DNA from: Nannocystis bainbridge
GTDB taxonomy: Bacteria > Myxococcota_A > Polyangia > Nannocystales > Nannocystaceae
NCBI RefSeq assembly: GCF_028368995.1
Contig: NZ_JAQNDL010000004.1
Location: 512,001 to 576,000, forward strand
Reading direction: 5' to 3'
Length of the DNA: 64,000 nt
Shown: in pieces, positions 39,881-47,113 of the stretch
Layout of the letters: each line of letters begins with the position of its first letter
Position numbering within the stretch: position 1 is the first letter of the stretch
Translations under genes and position numbers: made by a program
Notes under the pieces: model-generated
Told to the model about the DNA's origin: nothing
The model's input: the letters and a program-made list of their open reading frames with translations, nothing else
The model's database searches: none

Positions 39881-40792
39881 TCACGGGAGGAAGCTCCAGC
39901 GCCAGGTCATGATCGCCGAGCCCGTGCCCATGGTGCCGTTCTCGTTGCAGTCGGCCTGGCCCTGTTCGTAGTAGGCCTCGATCACCAGCTTGACGGCGCG
40001 ACCGTCGGCGAGGCGGAGGGCGAACGGGAAGCCGGTGGTGGTGACGCAGCCGGTGTAGCCCCACCAGCTGGCCATGCGGTACGCGGGGCTGCCGGGCAGG
40101 CCGGAGCCGTCCTCTTGCAGGGTGCAGGCGTCGTCGTAGTAGCTCTCGGGCGCGAACTCGGCGTCGGGCGGGGCGGCGTCGAGGTCGGCGTACTGGCCGG
40201 CGGGCGCGGCGACGGTGACGCACGACGGGCCCGAGCTGCCGCTGTTGGCGCGGATGCCGAAGCGCTTGGCGGCGATGTCCCAGGCGCCGCTCTCGAGCGC
40301 CGCGACGTCGTCGAGGTCGACCCGCGCGAGGCCGTCGTCGGTGAAGCGGAGGTAGACCCACGGATTCATCGCCGCGGCCATGGTCCCGCCGGCGGAGGCG
40401 TCGAGGGTCGAGACCCAGTCGTCGCCGTCGCGCACGCTGGCGACCTCGGCGTCGCTGACCTTGTCGTCTTGCAGCGACAGGTCCTGGATCGAGGCGTCGA
40501 TGCAGGGGACGGGGGCCAGCGGGCAGGCGTTCGGGTCGACCGGCTCGTCGGTGGTGCCGGGGTCGGTGGTGGTCGGTGGCTCGGCGGTGGTGCCGGTCTC
40601 GGTCGTGGTGCCGGGTTCGGTGGCGGCCGAGCTCTCGTTGCCGGTCTCGGCAGTGCCGCCGGTCCCGGCATCGTTGCCGGTCGCGGCCTCGGTGCCGGTG
40701 CCGGTGTCGGCCGGATCGCCCTGGTCGCCGCAGGCGCCGACGAGCATGGCGAAGAGGATGAGGTGTAACTTGGGACAGGTCGTGAGGGACAT
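39881..40792 (-). CDS. HmuY-family heme-binding lipoprotein
   Basis: LVGAC lipobox; WVYLRF, WDIAAKRFGIRANSGSSG, WWGY, KLVIEAYY; located downstream of heme ABC genes. Confidence 0.82.
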   Translation of the reverse strand: MSLTTCPKLHLILFAMLVGACGDQGDPADTGTGTEAATGNDAGTGGTAETGNESSAATEPGTTTETGTTAEPPTTTDPGTTDEPVDPNACPLAPVPCIDASIQDLSLQDDKVSDAEVASVRDGDDWVSTLDASAGGTMAAAMNPWVYLRFTDDGLARVDLDDVAALESGAWDIAAKRFGIRANSGSSGPSCVTVAAPAGQYADLDAAPPDAEFAPESYYDDACTLQEDGSGLPGSPAYRMASWWGYTGCVTTTGFPFALRLADGRAVKLVIEAYYEQGQADCNENGTMGTGSAIMTWRWSFLP

Positions 40793-40938
40793 GGGATGCG
40801 CGATCCTGGTGCGAGGTGATCTGAACTTTTGGACAGGTCCCCGGGCCCGACGAGCGGGCGGGCGAGATGAACCTTTGGACAGGTCCCCGGGGACAGGCGC
40901 GTGGGGCGCGTGCCGCGGCAGGACGGCCGCGGCCACGG

Positions 40939-41748
40939 TCACGCGTGGAGGTCGTCGGGCGGGCGCGGGAGGACGGCGAAGCCGCGGCCCGCGGGCGCGG
41001 GTACGAGGTCGAAGCGGGCGCCGAAGCACGCCTCGAGGCGCTCGGGGGTGAGGACGTCGGCCGGTTCACCGTGGGCGACGCAGCGGCCGGCGTGGAGCAG
41101 GGCGAGGTCGTCGGCGCACTGGCTGGCGGCGCCGAGGTCGTGGAGGACGAGCACGAGGGCGGTGTCGGTGGCGCGCACGAACTGGCGCAGGCGCGCGAGG
41201 ATCCGGACGGCGTGGCCGGGGTCGAGGTTGGCGGTCGGCTCGTCGAGCAGGAGGTAGCGGCGCGGGTGCTCGGGGCTGGGCTCCCAGATCTGGGCGAGCA
41301 CCCGGGCCAGCTGGACGCGCTGCTGCTCGCCGCCGGACAGGGTCGGGGCGAGGCGCTCGGCGAGGTGGGCGACCTCGGCCAGCTCGAGCGCGGCCCAGGC
41401 GATGTCGCGGTCGCGCCGGGTCTCGCCGCGGCCGGGGTGCGGGAGGCGCCCCAGGGTAGCGACCTCGAGCGCGGTCAGCGGGAAGCGCAGGGCGCTGGCC
41501 TGCGGCAGGACGGCCCGCATGCGCGCGAGGGAGGTGGGGTGGACCTGGGCGAGCGGGCGACCGTCGAAGCGCAGCTCGCCGGCGCTGGGGGCCTGCTCGC
41601 CGGCCCAGACGCGCAGCAGGGTCGATTTTCCGGCTCCGCTGGGGCCGACGACGGCGAGCACGCGGGCGCACTCGGCCACGAGCGAGAGGTCGCGCAGGAG
41701 CTCGGCGCGCCCGACGGTGACGCCGATGCGCGAGGCGACCAGGCTCAC
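40939..41748 (-). CDS. hmuV: Heme ABC transporter ATP-binding protein
   Basis: GPSGAGKST, LARMRAVLPQ, LSGGEQQRVQLARVLAQIW, LLLDEPT, VLHDL. Confidence 0.9.
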   Translation of the reverse strand: MSLVASRIGVTVGRAELLRDLSLVAECARVLAVVGPSGAGKSTLLRVWAGEQAPSAGELRFDGRPLAQVHPTSLARMRAVLPQASALRFPLTALEVATLGRLPHPGRGETRRDRDIAWAALELAEVAHLAERLAPTLSGGEQQRVQLARVLAQIWEPSPEHPRRYLLLDEPTANLDPGHAVRILARLRQFVRATDTALVLVLHDLGAASQCADDLALLHAGRCVAHGEPADVLTPERLEACFGARFDLVPAPAGRGFAVLPRPPDDLHA

Positions 41749-42005
41749 GCGACCTCCGATTGGGGGGCGGCGAAGCGAGGGGGATCGACCTCGGCCCCGG
41801 CGCGCCCGGGCGCATGGTCTTCGGGACAGGTCGAGCCGGGCCGCGCGTCGTGCGAGCCCGGGACCGGGGCCGGGCGGGGCGTGCGCATCAGGATGGCCTT
41901 CGGGACAGGTGGGGGCGCGACCGGGGGCGATCGCCTGGGTTCGACCCTTGGTTGCGATCGTTCTTCATAAGTATTCAGAACCAAAGATCTTACGGCGCTG
42001 CTCAT
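41745..42005 (-). CDS. Putative 86-aa Pro-rich spacer ORF coupling hmuU to hmuV
   Basis: ATG overlaps the hmuU stop and TGA overlaps the hmuV GTG; atypical codon use; contains two 14-bp units. Confidence 0.35.
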   Translation of the reverse strand: MSSAVRSLVLNTYEERSQPRVEPRRSPPVAPPPVPKAILMRTPRPAPVPGSHDARPGSTCPEDHAPGRAGAEVDPPRFAAPQSEVA

Positions 42006-43054
42006 GCGAACTCCGAGGCGCGCACGCGGGCGAGCAGGGCGAGGAACACCGGGGCGCCGAGCAGCGAGGTCAGGATGCCGACGGGCAGCTCGGCGGGGGC
42101 GAGCATGGTGCGGGCGGCGGCGTCGGCGAACAGCAGCAGGGCGGCGCCGCCGAGCGCGGCCGCGGGGATGAGGACGCGATGGCGCGGACCGACGAGCCCG
42201 CGCAGCAGGTGCGGGACGACCAGACCGACGAAGCCGATGATGCCGGTGAAGGCGACGCACACGCCGACGGCCAGGGCGACCTCGGTGATCACGCGCCGGC
42301 GTAGGCGCTCGACGTCGACGCCGAGGTGGAACGCCTCGGCCTCGCCGAGCAAGAGGGCGTCGAGCTCACGCGCGCGGCGCCACAAGAGGACGCCGGACAG
42401 GCCGACGAGGGGCACGAGGATGAGGCCGACGCTGTGGGTGATGCCGCCGAGCCCGCCGAGCAGCCACAGGCTGAGGTCGCGCAGCTGGCGGTCGTCGGCG
42501 AGGTAGCCGAGCAGGCCGATCGCGGCGCTGGCCAGGGCGCTGACGGCGATGCCGGCGAGCAGCAGGCCGACCACCGAGGTCTGGCCGCGGACCCGGGCGA
42601 GGGCGTGCACGATCCACGTGGCAACGAGCCCGCCGAAAAAGGCGAAGACCGGCTGGGTGAGGCCGCCGGGGAGCACGGGCAAGGCGCGGCCGAGCACGAT
42701 GGCGAGGCCGGCCCCGAGCGCGGCGCCGCTGCTGACGCCGACGAGGCTCGGGTCGGCCAGCGGGTTGCGGAACAGGCCCTGCATGGCGCAGCCGGACACC
42801 GCCAGGCCGGCGCCGACGACCATGGCGCCGAGGGTCCGCGGCAGGCGCAGGGCGGTGAGGATGTAGCGCTCGCTCGGCTCGCAGGTCGGGTCGGGCGAGA
42901 CGAGGCAGCCGACCGCGTGCGCGAGGTCGAGCGGGGCGGCGCCGACGGCCAGCTGCAGCAGCGCGCCGAGGACGACGAGGACGGCGAGGCCCACGAGGAC
43001 CGGGCGCACGCGCCGGGCTGTCCCGGCGGACAGGCTCGCCCGGGCGGCGGTCAC
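42002..43054 (-). CDS. hmuU: Heme ABC transporter permease (FecCD family)
   Basis: LRLPRT, QGLFRNPLADPSLVGVSSGA, LLLGEAEA.HLG, IGFVGLVVPH, ELPVGI. Confidence 0.92.
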   Translation of the reverse strand: MTAARASLSAGTARRVRPVLVGLAVLVVLGALLQLAVGAAPLDLAHAVGCLVSPDPTCEPSERYILTALRLPRTLGAMVVGAGLAVSGCAMQGLFRNPLADPSLVGVSSGAALGAGLAIVLGRALPVLPGGLTQPVFAFFGGLVATWIVHALARVRGQTSVVGLLLAGIAVSALASAAIGLLGYLADDRQLRDLSLWLLGGLGGITHSVGLILVPLVGLSGVLLWRRARELDALLLGEAEAFHLGVDVERLRRRVITEVALAVGVCVAFTGIIGFVGLVVPHLLRGLVGPRHRVLIPAAALGGAALLLFADAAARTMLAPAELPVGILTSLLGAPVFLALLARVRASEFA

Positions 43055-43230
43055 ACGGCCGCTCCTGCGCCTGCGGACATGTGCGAACAGACAGGGACCG
43101 CCGAGGACCTGCGCGAAGAGACAGGTGACCGGGACCTGCGCGAAGCGACAGGTGCTCGGCTGAGGCCGGGCCGGGCGCCGGAGCTGCGCGGAGCGACAGG
43201 CGCGCCGTCGCGGAGGCGGCACCGCGTCAC
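43051..43230 (-). CDS. Putative 59-aa spacer ORF coupling hmuT to hmuU
   Basis: GTG overlaps the hmuT stop and TGA overlaps the hmuU GTG; mostly built from four 14-bp units. Confidence 0.3.
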   Translation of the reverse strand: MTRCRLRDGAPVAPRSSGARPGLSRAPVASRRSRSPVSSRRSSAVPVCSHMSAGAGAAV

Positions 43231-44129
43231 GGCGCCGCTCCTTCGCCGAGCTCGGGGTGGAGGGCGACCAGCAGCTCGCGCACGCCCTGGCCGATCCGCG
43301 GGCCGAAGCCGAGCAGCTTGAGGTCGTCGATGGCGACGATCCGCTGGTCGCGGCCGGCGGGCGTCTCGGCCAGGCCGGGGAGGGCGAGCAGGCCCGGGAC
43401 GCCGCCCATGCTCTCGAGGCCGCGGCTCGGCAGGACGACCACGTCGGGCGCGGCGGCGACCACCGCCTCGGCGCTCCACGGCTTCATGCCGGTGAGGGCG
43501 CCGCCCGCGTTCTCGCCAGCGGCGAGGCGCACCAGCTCGGCGCCGGCGGTCTCGCGCCCGGCCACCAGCAGGCGGCCCGGCCCGCGCGCGTAGACGAACA
43601 GGACCCGCGGCCGCGAGGTGACGCGAGCGCGCATGCGGTCGGCCTCGGCCAGGTCGGCCTCGAGCGTGGCGAGCACCGTGGCCGCCGCTTCGGGCCGGCC
43701 GAGCGCGGCGGCGATGGCCGTGATGTTGCCGCGCGCGGCGTCGAGGTTCTCGCCCGACGGCAGCAGCTCGAGGCGGATGCCGGCGCTGCGCAGCTGCTCG
43801 ACCGCGGTGGCCGGACCGGACGCGTCGCTGGCGAGCACCAGGTCCGGCCGGAGCCCGAGCACGCCCTCGGCGGAGAACTGCCGGTAGTAGCCGACCCGCG
43901 GGAGGGCAGCGGCGGTCTCGGGATAGAGGCTCGAGAGGTCGACGCCGACGACGCGATCCCCGGCCCCAAGCGCAAATACCGCTTCGGTGACCGAGCTGCC
44001 GAGGGTGACGATGCGCTGGGGAGCCGTGACCTCGGCCGTCGCGGGGGCTGGACCGTCGCCCGGGGCGGCGCAGGCCGGGAGCAGCACCGCAGCGAGGACG
44101 AGCGAGCGAAGGACGGTCGAGGCGAGCAT
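43227..44129 (-). CDS. hmuT: Heme ABC transporter substrate-binding lipoprotein
   Basis: LLPAC lipobox; RIVTLGSSVTE.VFALG, GVDLSSLYP, VGYYRQFSAEGVL (heme Tyr), TPAG, LLGFGPR. Confidence 0.9.
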   Translation of the reverse strand: MLASTVLRSLVLAAVLLPACAAPGDGPAPATAEVTAPQRIVTLGSSVTEAVFALGAGDRVVGVDLSSLYPETAAALPRVGYYRQFSAEGVLGLRPDLVLASDASGPATAVEQLRSAGIRLELLPSGENLDAARGNITAIAAALGRPEAAATVLATLEADLAEADRMRARVTSRPRVLFVYARGPGRLLVAGRETAGAELVRLAAGENAGGALTGMKPWSAEAVVAAAPDVVVLPSRGLESMGGVPGLLALPGLAETPAGRDQRIVAIDDLKLLGFGPRIGQGVRELLVALHPELGEGAAP

Positions 44130-44187
44130 GCAGATCCAGACCGATGACACCGCGAGGCGCGCGGGCCAGAGTGGTGGCTACCACATT

Positions 44188-44204
44188 TTGAAAATGCAAA
44201 TCAA
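44188..44204. promoter_or_regulatory. Fur-like box (hmuT-proximal)
   Basis: TTGAAAATGCAAATCAA, a 17-bp imperfect palindrome resembling the deltaproteobacterial Fur consensus WTGAAAATNATTTTCAW; AT-rich island upstream of heme uptake genes. Confidence 0.75.
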
Positions 44205-44259
44205 AGCTAATTTCGTGAGCGAACCGCGCAACTGGGGTGTCACGGCCCTGGAGTTTGGC

Positions 44260-44290
44260 TTGACACGAGATTTTGAAAACTGTTATCAAT
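44260..44290 (+). promoter_or_regulatory. Sigma70-like promoter for rpsD overlapped by a second Fur-like box
   Basis: TTGACA at 44260-44265; TATCAA at 44284-44289; box TTGAAAACTGTTATCAA at 44273-44289. Confidence 0.72.
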
Positions 44291-44315
44291 CCACCCCCTC
44301 GCTCGGAAGCGCACC

Positions 44316-44933
44316 ATGAGTCGTTACACCGGACCCCGTCTCCGCATCCTCCGCCGCCTCGACGTCGACCTCCCGGGTCTGACCGCCAAGTCGCGCGAGA
44401 AGCGGCCCTATCCACCCGGACAGCACGGGCAGGCGCGGCGCAAGCGGCCGTCCGCCTACGGCATGCAGCTCGCCGAGAAGCAGAAGCTCTGCTTCAACTA
44501 CGGCGTCAGCGAGCGGCAGATGCGGCGCCTGTTCGCCGAGGCGATCGCGGCCAAGGGCGTCACCGGTGAAGTGCTGCTCGAGCTGCTCGAGCGCCGCCTC
44601 GACAACGTCGTGTTCCGCTCCGGCCTCGCGCCGACGATCCCCGCGGCGCGGCAGCTCGTGACCCACGGGCACGTCCGCGTCGACGGCCATCGCGTCGACA
44701 TCGCCTCGTTCCGCGTGCGCACCGGCGCCGAGATCACGCTGCGCCCGCGCAGCGTCGACCTCGACATCGTCCAAAAGGCCGTGGGCACGCCGGTCCGCAT
44801 CCCGCTGCCGACGTGGCTCGAGACCGATCTGCCGCAGCGTCGGGTGAAGATGGTCGGCAAGCCGAGCGGCAACTCGGCTCCGTTCGAGCTCGATGTCCAG
44901 CTGGTGGTCGAGTACTACGCCCGCTTCTTCTAG
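44316..44933 (+). CDS. rpsD: 30S ribosomal protein S4, stand-alone form lacking the N-terminal Cys motif
   Basis: MSRYTGP, PPGQHG, YG.QL.EKQK, LERRLDNVVFR, ARQLVTHGH, VVEYY; not in the alpha operon. Confidence 0.96.
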   Translation: MSRYTGPRLRILRRLDVDLPGLTAKSREKRPYPPGQHGQARRKRPSAYGMQLAEKQKLCFNYGVSERQMRRLFAEAIAAKGVTGEVLLELLERRLDNVVFRSGLAPTIPAARQLVTHGHVRVDGHRVDIASFRVRTGAEITLRPRSVDLDIVQKAVGTPVRIPLPTWLETDLPQRRVKMVGKPSGNSAPFELDVQLVVEYYARFF

Positions 44934-44940
44934 GAGTGCC

Positions 44941-45345
44941 ATGCCGCGCCCCTCGACCCCCGACAATTCGTTGATGGCGCTGATCGTGCGCCGCTGCGGT
45001 CTCGACGCGGTGGCAGCCGAGCTGCTGCAGCGAATCGAGGCCGCCGCGTGGGACCTCGTCGCCGACGGCGTGACGCCGGACGTGCTGCGCGCGGTGCTCG
45101 CGGTGGTCGCCGACGTGGCACCGGCTCCGGCGGGCCTGCCGTTCCGCGCGCGCCGGCTGCTGCGGAAGTTCGCCCGCGCCCGCGACGCCGGCGTGCCGCC
45201 CGACGTGGTCTCCAGCTTCACCGAGGACGCGCTGCGCATGGCGCTGCTGATCGACGACGCGTTCCACCGCGGCCACGCGCTCGGCCGCGCCGAGGCGACG
45301 ACGCCGATCGAAGACGCGCCGCCGCCCGGGACCTGGCCGCACTGA
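44941..45345 (+). CDS. Hypothetical protein co-oriented with rpsD
   Basis: AGGAG RBS 8 nt after the rpsD stop; helical composition; GC3 bias. Confidence 0.7.
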   Translation: MPRPSTPDNSLMALIVRRCGLDAVAAELLQRIEAAAWDLVADGVTPDVLRAVLAVVADVAPAPAGLPFRARRLLRKFARARDAGVPPDVVSSFTEDALRMALLIDDAFHRGHALGRAEATTPIEDAPPPGTWPH

Positions 45346-45359
45346 GGCGCAAGCGCACC

Positions 45360-45528
45360 GGATGTCTGAAGGGACATGGCCGCGAGGTCATGTCCCTTTT
45401 GCGTGCATGGTTCACCGAGCCCGAGTCGGATGTCTGAAGGGACATGGCCGCGAGGTCATGTCCCTTCGTGCATGTGCTTCGCATTGGATGTCCGAAGAGA
45501 CATGGCCGCGAGGTCATGTCCCTTCGTG
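45360..45528. repeat. Three ~39-bp direct repeats, each built of two 14-bp units, at a convergent junction
   Basis: ggatgtcYgaagRgacatggccgcgaggtcatgtccctt at 45360, 45428 and 45486. Confidence 0.92.
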
Positions 45529-45541
45529 CGCCCGGCTCGGG

Positions 45542-47113
45542 TCAGAGCGCCTGCGCGGCGATCCAGCGGAACACGCCGGGCCCGGTGCCGCGCATCAGCT
45601 CGGGGTCGGGCTCGAGCGCGTCGATGCGCGCCAGCTCGCCGGTCACCGAGAGCACGTACAGGTTGCGCGGGGCCGACGGCGGCAGCAGCAGCTCGACGCT
45701 GAAGCCCTGGTCGTCGCGGCTGTGGAGCAGCAGGTCGCCGTCGTCGTCGATCGCCAGCGCCCACATCGGCACGCCCTGGAACCGCTCCATGCCCGCCGAC
45801 GACACGCGGACGATCTCCCCCGCCGTCACCCCGCCGACGTCCTGCGTGTCGCTGGCGCACGTCCAGGCGACGAAGCGGGCGTTCGGCGAGGCCACCGGCG
45901 GCTGGCCGCCGACGCATGGGCTCTGCTCCGCGCTCAGCAGCTCGAGCCGGTCGGCGTCGACGCGCAGCGCGGCCCCGCGGACCGTCACGAACAGCAGCGC
46001 GCGGCCGTCGGCGCTGACGCGGGTGAACAGCTCGCCGGTGTCGCCGATCAGCGGCCGGCCGTCGTGCTCGCCGGTCGTGTGGTCGTAGCGGCGGATCGCC
46101 AGGCCGTCACGGAACACGTAGTGGCGGGGCGAGACGGCGGCGACCAGGCGCGAAGGGTCGGCCCACGCGGGGGCGTCGCCCGGGACCGCGCAGGCGACCC
46201 CGGGCTCGTCGACGGCCCAGCGCCACACGCGGCAGAGGCCGTCGGCGCCGCCCAGGCTCAGCGCGCCGCCGTCGGGGTCGACCACGCCGAGGCCGCAGCT
46301 CGGGCCCGGGCCGGCGCAGCGGGCCCGCTGCAGCCGCGCGAGCGGGGCGTCGGGCAGGCGGGCCGCGCCCAGCTCGGTCAACGCGGGCGCGGCGTCGTAG
46401 CCCTCGGCTGGCCTCGGGTACCTGATTGCAAGGACATGTCCTTTGGGACCTGGCCGTAAGAACCCGTCCTCGGGGACACCTTGCACGGCGAACAGCACCG
46501 GGGCGTCGGCGGCGCCCACGACCCCCCAGACCTCGGCGCAGCCGGCCGGCAGCGGCCACGCGAGCGGCACGATCGCGGCCGGATCGCCGGCGCTGGTGGT
46601 GGCGACCCGGGGCGACAGCGGCACCAGCTGCAGCGCGGCCGGGCAGCCGGCGGTCCACCACAGCGCGCCGCCGGCGGGGGCGAAGCCGGTGGCGTCAGGG
46701 GCCAGGCGGGCGGGCAGGGCGAGCGGCAGGGTGCGCGCGCCGACGAGGTCGACGAAGCCGGCGCGCAGCGTGCCGAAGCTGTCCCCGAGTTCATGTTGCC
46801 AGCCGCCGTCGCCGGCGCGGATAAGGGCGCCCTGACCGCGCGGATCGAGCTCGACCACGAGGGGCTGCGCGTCGGCCTCGGGGCCCGGTTCGGCGGGCAA
46901 GAGCTCGCGGAAGGCGAGGTCGCCGGCGTCGTAGATCGTCAGGGTCCGGGCCCCCTCCTTGCCGCGCTGCGACGCGATCCACACCGCGCGCGCGTCGACC
47001 GTGGGCGGGCCGCACGCGACGAGGCCAACGACGGTCAGGACGGTCAGGATCGCCGCGCCCGCGCGAGCGCGAAGGCCCGCGGGCGGGCGCGGGGGCGTCG
47101 CTTGTGACTTCAC
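45542..47113 (-). CDS. Hypothetical lipoprotein, possibly a beta-propeller
   Basis: GTG after a GGGGGA RBS; LTVVGLVAC lipobox; LDPRG, VSADGR and ASPNARFVAW blade-like segments. Confidence 0.65.
   Translation of the reverse strand: MKSQATPPRPPAGLRARAGAAILTVLTVVGLVACGPPTVDARAVWIASQRGKEGARTLTIYDAGDLAFRELLPAEPGPEADAQPLVVELDPRGQGALIRAGDGGWQHELGDSFGTLRAGFVDLVGARTLPLALPARLAPDATGFAPAGGALWWTAGCPAALQLVPLSPRVATTSAGDPAAIVPLAWPLPAGCAEVWGVVGAADAPVLFAVQGVPEDGFLRPGPKGHVLAIRYPRPAEGYDAAPALTELGAARLPDAPLARLQRARCAGPGPSCGLGVVDPDGGALSLGGADGLCRVWRWAVDEPGVACAVPGDAPAWADPSRLVAAVSPRHYVFRDGLAIRRYDHTTGEHDGRPLIGDTGELFTRVSADGRALLFVTVRGAALRVDADRLELLSAEQSPCVGGQPPVASPNARFVAWTCASDTQDVGGVTAGEIVRVSSAGMERFQGVPMWALAIDDDGDLLLHSRDDQGFSVELLLPPSAPRNLYVLSVTGELARIDALEPDPELMRGTGPGVFRWIAAQAL

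Follow-up and report, generated by a model that had tools for sequence, protein, structure and literature searches.

Among the genes of a 64,000-nucleotide stretch of the Nannocystis bainbridge genome (hereafter the window; G000:C4:512001-576000) is rpsD2, which specifies an accessory, cysteine-free version of ribosomal protein uS4. The gene diverges from a heme-uptake operon, and a Fur-type inverted repeat covers the spacer and -10 of its inferred promoter. The product is probably an iron-responsive alternative uS4; we infer the iron response and the binding of Fur from the sequence. The fuller proposal, that the exchange spares iron by replacing a uS4 with an Fe-S cluster, requires assumptions about the metal of the primary uS4 and about incorporation into the 30S subunit as well, and is put forward tentatively, as somewhat short of probable.

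The rpsD2 product, a 205 amino acid protein, contains Ribosomal_S4 (PF00163, 7.8e-27, residues 3-92) and S4 (PF01479, 2.8e-19, residues 93-140) domains from Pfam, and exceeds the rpsD_bact equivalog cut-offs of NCBIfam (TIGR01017, 230.8 bits against 177.2; NF003717, 240.2 against 116). Residues 1-203 align with 41 distinct PDB sequences of uS4 at E-values of 1e-30 or lower, the best being 7.7e-50. The N-terminus, MSRYTGPRLRILRR, is without the CxxC...CxxxxC cluster, all four cysteines (Cys) being gone (GPRLRILRR...PGLTAKSREKR), and the single Cys, residue 59, is unrelated to it. The PGxHG motif, which is absent in the C-(V) type of Cys-free (C-) S4, is kept as YPPGQHGQ (residues 32-39). The indel at the second Cys pair is lost, with gaps of 2 and 4 columns against S4 of Thermus thermophilus, an indel size which differs by one in this alignment from the seven residues given by Chen et al. 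(PMC3087516). In place of rpsK and rpoA, the neighbours of rpsD2 are a heme-type ATP-binding cassette (ABC) operon on the minus strand and a 134-amino-acid open reading frame (ORF). The preliminary description of this DNA had reported an rpsD lacking the N-terminal Cys cluster and lying outside the alpha operon, and domains, N-terminus and flanking genes all bear this out.

A second S4 gene, 47% identical to rpsD2, was located at C2:2103657-2104283 in this genome of 11.05 Mb (5 contigs, 71.5% G+C). It sits within the alpha operon, in the order rpsM-rpsK-rpsD-rpoA-rplQ, and its product begins MARYIGPVCRLCRRE...KGDRCFTDKC, the CxxC-x13-CxxxxC pattern of a Cys-containing (C+) S4. The protein aligns from 1 to 209 with T. 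thermophilus S4, all four Cys in register, and like rpsD2 it exceeds the rpsD_bact cut-off. The Cys-plus rpsD which the preliminary description had proposed to look for in the alpha operon is hence present, and rpsD2 is not the only S4 gene; as read from the two sequences and their settings, the housekeeping uS4 of this Nannocystis is the four-Cys alpha-operon form, and rpsD2 is accessory. The rpsD2 protein is 93-94% identical to S4 paralogues of Nannocystis exedens, N. pusilla, N. punicea and Nannocystis sp. RBIL2. Within the genus the median nonsynonymous (dN) and synonymous (dS) distances for rpsD2 are 0.039 and 0.21, with dN/dS 0.20 (15 pairs), against dN 0.004, dS 0.07 and dN/dS 0.11 for the primary gene. 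On these rates rpsD2 is under purifying selection, though its protein evolves about ten times faster than the primary copy.

The intergenic gap between hmuT and rpsD2 measures 186 bp and contains two inverted repeats, 85 bp apart (Table 1). The consensus Fur box is itself a 7-1-7 inverted repeat. The arms of box 2, TGAAAAC-T-GTTATCA, follow the form TGAWAAY-N-RTTWTCA; the box lies 8 nt after a perfect TTGACA, 27 nt before the ATG of rpsD2 and 145 nt from that of hmuT, and the 17-mer TTGAAAACTGTTATCAA at 44273-44289 overlaps the spacer and the -10-like TATCAA. Box 1 is found 60-74 nt upstream of the hmuT ATG (44129, minus strand), and because of this position the two genes have separate boxes. 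The single divergent promoter that had been proposed for rpsD and hmu therefore does not stand, each gene having its own box; the overlap of a TTGACA/-10 promoter of rpsD by one box and the presence of a second before hmuT do, with the qualification that the -10 is imperfect. The layout of TTGAC followed by a box also occurs at several other motif sites of the genome. A permissive Rfam scan of 43900-45700 returned three chance-level matches only, with no riboswitch and no S4 leader, and a scan of the same interval gave a single terminator-like site, at chance level, within the intergenic gap.

Table 1. Features of the rpsD2 locus, in coordinates of the window
Feature	Position	Strand	Basis
HmuY-like lipoprotein gene, last of the heme-uptake cluster	39881..40792	-	HmuY 3e-07, 31.1 bits, cut-off 27
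hmuV, heme ABC transporter ATPase	40939..41748	-	Pfam ABC_tran; NF010068 261.4 bits against cut-off 261 (just reached)
hmuU, FecCD-type permease	42002..43222 (listed ORF; true start probably further in)	-	FecCD 7.5e-88, residues 83-399
hmuT, periplasmic binding lipoprotein	43227..44129	-	Pfam Peripla_BP_2 2.2e-28
Box 1 TGAAAATGCAAATCA, upstream of hmuT	44189..44203	.	Kept with flanks in 6/6 Nannocystis
-35 hexamer TTGACA, inferred rpsD2 promoter	44260..44265	+	Direct reading; invariant in 6/6 Nannocystis
Box 2 TGAAAACTGTTATCA, Fur-type 7-1-7 inverted repeat over rpsD2 spacer and -10	44274..44288	.	Site of the genome motif with at most 1 mismatch
-10-like hexamer TATCAA, 18-nt spacer	44284..44289	+	Direct reading; TATCAA or TATCAG in congeners
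rpsD2, accessory Cys-free uS4, C-(IV) type	44316..44933	+	Pfam, NCBIfam, identity to alpha-operon copy, alignment to solved chains, dN/dS
orf134, 134-aa protein without family	44941..45345	+	7 nt after rpsD2 stop
Three copies of 26-nt hairpin GGGACATG-N10-CATGTCCC	45371..45522	+	3 matches against 0 in 100 shuffles (window)

In the whole genome the motif TGAWAAYNRTTWTCA has 3 perfect sites, 14 with no more than one mismatch and 32 with no more than two, against 0.005, 0.29 and 7.9 expected under an independent, identically distributed model. Three genomes simulated from a third-order Markov model gave 0/0/11, 0/0/11 and 0/1/12 sites in the same classes. Box 2 is one of the 14 sites with no more than one mismatch. 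Pfam analysis of 20 ORFs flanking these 14 sites and two weaker ones revealed an IucA/IucC+FhuF siderophore synthetase, a ferritin and an imelysin, and a gene for a TonB-dependent receptor lies behind a perfect site, TGATAATCATTATCA; the other ORFs specify DUF3570, other methyltransferases, an RCC1-repeat protein and several proteins without a family. Since genes of iron acquisition and iron storage stand behind its sites, the motif is interpreted as a Fur-type box, in keeping with the Fur-like character first ascribed to it. Judged by its gene neighbours and by these counts, the box family marks a Fur-type iron regulon and is real beyond chance. A methyltransferase of the LCM type recurs behind boxes, once beside the IucA/IucC cluster of this genome (L008; G000:C1:2223706-2224557) and once in genome G350, where it is divergent from the accessory S4 (L204:3860-5008, minus strand).

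Four matches to PF01475 (best 112.1 bits) correspond to two Fur-family genes. The fur gene gives the appearance of three genes because three of the matches lie in 99.5%-identical repeats at contig ends. The repeats shared by the ends of C1 and C2 (C1:4515656-4536530 and C2:3021502-3033751) are direct and inverted, 99.4-99.9% identical and 3.6-17 kb long, and reflect either a true duplication or an artefact of assembly. Of the two Fur-family products, one scores best against Fur models of NCBIfam and the other is ambiguous, both being far below the equivalog cut-offs. No recognisable metal transporter was found in the neighbourhood of the second gene.

All six Nannocystis genomes that have the Cys-free gene, the present one included, keep the arrangement hmuY-V-U-T / rpsD2-orf134 as a whole, and hmuT shows 81-89% amino acid identity beside rpsD2 in them. 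The two boxes, the TTGACA and the leader in front of the ATG are retained in all six, with box 2 at -41/-42, and the 40-50 nt between the boxes diverge freely. None of the other five genomes of the genus group is complete (64-88%); in three of them only the C+ copy was seen, and in two no S4. Conservation of the linkage and of the boxes in relatives, which the preliminary description had suggested examining, is thus complete among these Nannocystis, and linkage and boxes recur in other genera.

Nineteen genomes from 10 genera possess both S4 forms. A box with at most two mismatches was found upstream of the Cys-free gene within 1.5 kb in 14 of them and within 3.5 kb in 17; the remaining two have boxes with three mismatches, at -52 behind TTGAC in G372 and about 1.6 kb upstream in G024. 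Where the Cys-free S4 is the only S4, a box within 1.5 kb was seen at 1 of 32 loci, as a poor, G+C-rich match. In these counts the S4 gene was placed by tblastn, the one rule of at most two mismatches was applied throughout, and sole-copy loci were scored at 1.5 kb; genome G020 and locus L064 of a metagenome-assembled genome, with hmuTUV upstream of S4, were left out of both because their C+ status is undecided. The box stands right before S4 in G080 (-59), G350 (-29), G357 (-37), G362 (-61), G116 (-186) and G020 (-34). Elsewhere the orders are box, TonB receptor, HmuY, small ORF and S4 (G157); box, small ORF, DUF3501 ORF, AhpC-type peroxiredoxin and S4 (G011); box and small ORF, with S4 further along (G352); TonB receptor, box, small ORF and S4 (G018); and tandem boxes, a 267-aa ORF without family and S4 (G108). 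The distance from box to S4 is 1.6-3.1 kb in G011, G352 and G157, and co-directional genes occupy the interval where the box is distant. Other neighbours of S4 are a TonB receptor upstream and hmuTUV downstream (G350), a divergent PepSY_TM gene (G357), an S41 peptidase (G361, G362) and a HmuY gene downstream (G020). As far as these loci can be read, the box belongs to accessory Cys-free S4 genes and not to Cys-free S4 in general, and iron-uptake genes are what it travels with.

Within the Nannocystaceae the occurrence of the pair is patchy: both forms are present in 15 of 73 genomes, and a Cys-free copy in two more, namely G012, where it is the sole S4, and G020, an assembly without detectable rpoA. 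A sample of 301 genomes of the phylum contained both forms in G000, G080, G108, G157 and G116. Two C+-like S4 matches were seen in G343 and two weak matches in G273, and a search with PF00163 for a hidden second S4 in five genomes of family f46 found one S4 each. A scan of contigs for S4 paralogues yielded mostly sole-copy S4 genes of other phyla. The alpha operons of G012, G036 and G039 run rpsM-rpsK-rpoA-rplQ without rpsD, and a Cys-free S4 elsewhere is the only copy (L184, L185, L186), as if the accessory type had taken the primary gene's place. A quick IQ-TREE analysis of 105 S4 sequences placed the phylum's C+ copies in one clade (99) and the Cys-free copies, accessory and sole alike, in a loose separate group that includes three sequences of other phyla. 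The accessory branches are long (0.6-0.9 against a median of 0.14), and a single origin is not settled by the tree. The second S4 of G116 (L178:956-1540, minus strand) is very divergent, with a branch of 1.6, no PGQHG and a box at -186; its C+ copy lies in the alpha operon.

The predictions of the preliminary description that could be examined in silico all came out as it had proposed. Taken together, a Fur-type box beside iron-uptake genes suggests that the organism rebuilds its ribosomes under iron shortage. With iron sufficient, a repressor of the Fur family, most likely Fe(II)-loaded Fur, would occupy box 2 over the spacer and -10 of rpsD2, and box 1, 85 bp away, would shut the divergent hmuTUV-hmuY heme-uptake operon. 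When iron runs short the repressor would leave both boxes, and the Cys-free uS4, made together with orf134, would be built into new 30S subunits instead of, or alongside, the Cys-plus uS4, which shares the Cys4 site modelled with Fe4S4 in T. thermophilus. Such a swap would keep 30S assembly going without the Fe-S cofactor, or spare iron. At one Fe4S4 per ribosome, 10^4-10^5 ribosomes would hold, by a rough estimate, a sizeable share of the iron of the cell. uS4 is a primary 30S assembly protein, not a late peripheral one. That Fur in Polyangia switches this nucleating protein from an Fe-S Cys4 form to a cofactor-free form, which would make it the first iron-controlled alternative ribosomal protein, is a possibility we hold with less than even confidence. 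The alternative S4 may also cross-repress the alpha operon, by analogy with L31B (PMC11672702).

Several observations weigh against this interpretation. A strict sigma-70 scan of 43900-45700 reported no promoters, in the case of rpsD2 because the -10 hexamer is without its final T (position 6). Box 1 is weak here, with three mismatches to TGAWAAYNRTTWTCA against two in three congeners. The genome has a second Fur-family gene, and the regulator of the box is accordingly named as a candidate Fur only. The available RNA-type data are 5 runs that contain 7-9% of the words; the four aligned to the locus are soil metatranscriptome contigs of relatives, which are uninformative on regulation. Fisher values for the association of box and accessory S4 overstate it since related genomes are not independent. 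By our reading of the phylum-wide S4 matches, a C+-like S4 is missing from more than 100 of the 295 genomes that gave a match; for this reason the C- form is a competent sole S4, and the benefit of keeping the C+ form is unexplained. The metal of the Cys4 site is disputed in print and unsettled. Chen et al. (2009) describe the T. thermophilus site as zinc-binding (PMC3087516), and Helena-Bueno et al. (2023) report that T. thermophilus uS4 coordinates an Fe4S4 cluster (PMC10450194), so that the 4Fe-4S model cited in the preliminary description is indeed in the literature; the latter authors assume that C- isoforms are zinc-starvation forms. Lastly, the S4 paralogues of Myxococcus xanthus, MXAN_6908 and MXAN_3325, show opposite developmental profiles; their role is unexplored and no link to iron is made in the main text of that report (PMC9548883, 2022).

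Four other explanations have to be set beside iron control of rpsD2. The boxes might serve the neighbouring uptake genes only, rpsD2 being constitutive or otherwise controlled and having arrived by accidental insertion. As rpsD2 is divergent from hmuT in Nannocystis, any box in the gap is near both genes, the sigma-70 scan is without a promoter, and other genes separate the distant box from S4 in G011, G352 and G157. Box 2 nevertheless covers the inferred rpsD2 promoter close to the ATG while hmuT has a box of its own, the six genomes with the box right before S4 differ in their neighbourhoods, and 31 of the 32 sole-copy Cys-free genes are without one. This explanation is very unlikely. The protein could also be an S4-derived RNA-binding regulator of iron-regulon or alpha-operon mRNAs that is not ribosomal in practice. 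S4 is a translational repressor and antitermination factor, and the long accessory branches, the roughly tenfold higher dN within the genus and the loss of PGQHG in G116 would suit such a role. It is distinctly unlikely for a full-length protein above the equivalog cut-off, both domains of which align with solved uS4 chains, and the same clade provides the sole S4 of G012, G036 and G039.

A signal from peroxide or Fe-S damage, with a PerR-like protein, or Fur within an oxidative programme, bringing in a Cys-free uS4 to replace an oxidant-damaged one, is unlikely too, though it would account for the AhpC-type gene between box and S4 in G011 and for the order AhpC, PepSY_TM, S4 in G024, both of which count against an iron signal; the second Fur-family protein scores best against the PerR model, if weakly (40.8 bits against a cut-off of 180). 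Among the annotated genes behind the 14 best sites of the window genome there is no peroxidase or catalase and there are iron and heme genes instead, and most other genera pair the accessory S4 with TonB, HmuY or Hmu ABC genes. Zinc sparing, through a Zur box and replacement of a zinc-ribbon uS4 as for L31, L33, L36, S14 and S18, has precedent on its side. Every C- ribosomal paralogue with tested regulation is reported to respond to zinc, by way of Zur or, in the case of two Streptomyces genes, of a sigma factor (PMC3087516; PMC11672702). The zinc-binding site that Chen et al. assign to T. thermophilus S4 (PMC3087516) fits the same idea, and Fur and Zur boxes are similar in form. The genes which share the box are those of siderophore, heme, ferritin and TonB systems, however, with no zinc uptake gene among the ORFs behind its sites, and Chen et al., with 26 genomes examined, report that the S4 paralogues have no Zur sites nearby (PMC3087516). 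S14 and L31 are single Cys-free genes without an AT-rich box, L33 is single, and no other sign of a zinc-sparing ribosome was seen among them; with no other C-/C+ pair among the three, no Zur box of this genome can be defined. We consider zinc sparing highly improbable.

An iron-responsive rpsD2 would resemble the iron-sparing swaps controlled by Fur, such as flavodoxin for ferredoxin and Mn- for Fe-superoxide dismutase, in that an iron-free isoform is derepressed together with uptake genes, and would differ from them in concerning a structural protein of the ribosome instead of enzymes or electron carriers. It also has much in common with the Zur-regulated C- paralogues (L31B, L36B, S14, S18, L28 and L33 of E. 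coli, B. subtilis, mycobacteria and Streptomyces): a Cys-free copy outside the main operon, a Cys4 primary, and a palindrome of the Fur-family type over the promoter that is shared with uptake genes for the limiting metal. Unlike that set, rpsD2 specifies uS4, which is outside the tested Zur-controlled proteins, the regulon of its box is related to iron and not zinc, and what is spared would be iron in the form of an Fe-S cluster.

Chen, Roberts and Luthey-Schulten (2009) divided S4 into C+ and five C- types and listed 26 genomes with both, including Myxococcus xanthus, Sorangium cellulosum, Bdellovibrio and Nitrosomonas europaea; the C+ gene lies in the alpha operon, horizontal transfer is proposed for C-(IV), Zur sites were sought and none found, and the word iron is absent from the available text (PMC3087516). 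The Nannocystis pair agrees with theirs in that C+ belongs to the alpha operon while C-(IV) lies elsewhere, with PGxHG kept and the Cys loop deleted, and departs from an account confined to a Zur search in its Fur-type box and iron-uptake linkage and in being patchy within the Nannocystaceae. Two S4 genes in condition-dependent use are likewise known from the clostridial C-(V) paralogues, up in sporulation (PMC3087516), and from M. xanthus (PMC9548883), where the signal is, as far as those texts state, developmental; C-(V) is in addition without PGxHG. In a literature search covering main texts, no paper was found that connects an S4 paralogue with Fur or iron, and the accessible text of a 2024 metallostasis review mentions neither uS4 nor rpsD; a supplementary list of M. 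xanthus Fur-box genes, Table S2A of PMC9548883, may bear on the matter. The S4 paralogue pair has thus been in print since 2009 with its regulation unsolved there, and the Fur-type box and the link to iron are, as far as this search goes, new here. Metal-dependent remodelling of the ribosome has so far meant zinc, Zur and small peripheral proteins, and a Fur-type switch of uS4, if true, would bring in both iron and a primary assembly protein. Such a switch would further give physiological meaning to the disputed Fe-S cluster, the Fe4S4 of Thermus uS4 being then a genuine cofactor with a physiological cost, in mesophiles as well, would address the 2009 question of how S4 paralogues are regulated, and would wire ribosome biogenesis directly to iron status. 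Strains of Nannocystis are cultivable, N. exedens DSM 71 and N. pusilla Na p29 among them, which both possess the locus, and this makes the hypothesis directly testable.

With respect to the neighbouring genes, the HmuY match was obtained on ORF 39881..41029, the start at 40792 being placed from a lipoprotein-type signal. On the other side of rpsD2, the gene of no assigned function that the preliminary description had noted after rpsD is orf134, which matches no Pfam or NCBIfam family and in the Atlas has no usable feature hit and structure hits with TM of at most 0.53. Among the loci searched it was found in Nannocystis only, at 84-90% amino acid identity, and the four intact copies compared with that of the window gave dN/dS values of 0.24-0.31. 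The match in N. pusilla is split into two pieces in different frames (L061:5626-6022, L029:2126-2522), by either a frameshift or a sequencing error. Because the gap is only 7 nt, orf134 is probably co-transcribed with rpsD2. One RNA-library contig of a relative spans 44883-45104, from the end of S4 into orf134, and another 45082-45345, a weak observation for which DNA carry-over is possible.

Just upstream of the accessory S4 in G011, G352, G018 and G157 is a gene for a small protein of about 80-100 amino acids with the motif C-x-C-[GT]-x-x-H-L-x-x-G-A (loci L139:9943-10242, minus strand; L145:3582-3845, plus; L194:4764-5033, minus). In the genome of the window the gene lies elsewhere (L011:37-282; G000:C1:2356693-2356938), directly behind one of the 14 best boxes. 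The protein has no Pfam family, and the Atlas returned only unnamed clusters with scores below 0.9. The gene may belong to the regulon as well, or its product may work together with the alternative S4; sharing the box and standing next to S4 in three genera, it might act as a helper dedicated to the switch.

For S14 and L31 this genome yielded one gene each, both of them Cys-free long forms that are next to each other and apart from the main ribosomal operons (L196/L197; G000:C3:1278472-1279186), and at these two positions the ribosome seems, from the gene content, to be zinc-independent already. The hairpins that follow orf134 (Table 1) are a possible terminator or a possible element like the repetitive extragenic palindromic (REP) sequences. 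Hairpins of the form GGGACATG-N4-14-CATGTCCC are also noted at 747 and 17183, with 4 exact copies in the window and a genome-wide count of 91; for the palindrome GGACATGTCC the count over 11 Mb is 956, and the hairpins look like members of a REP-like repeat family.

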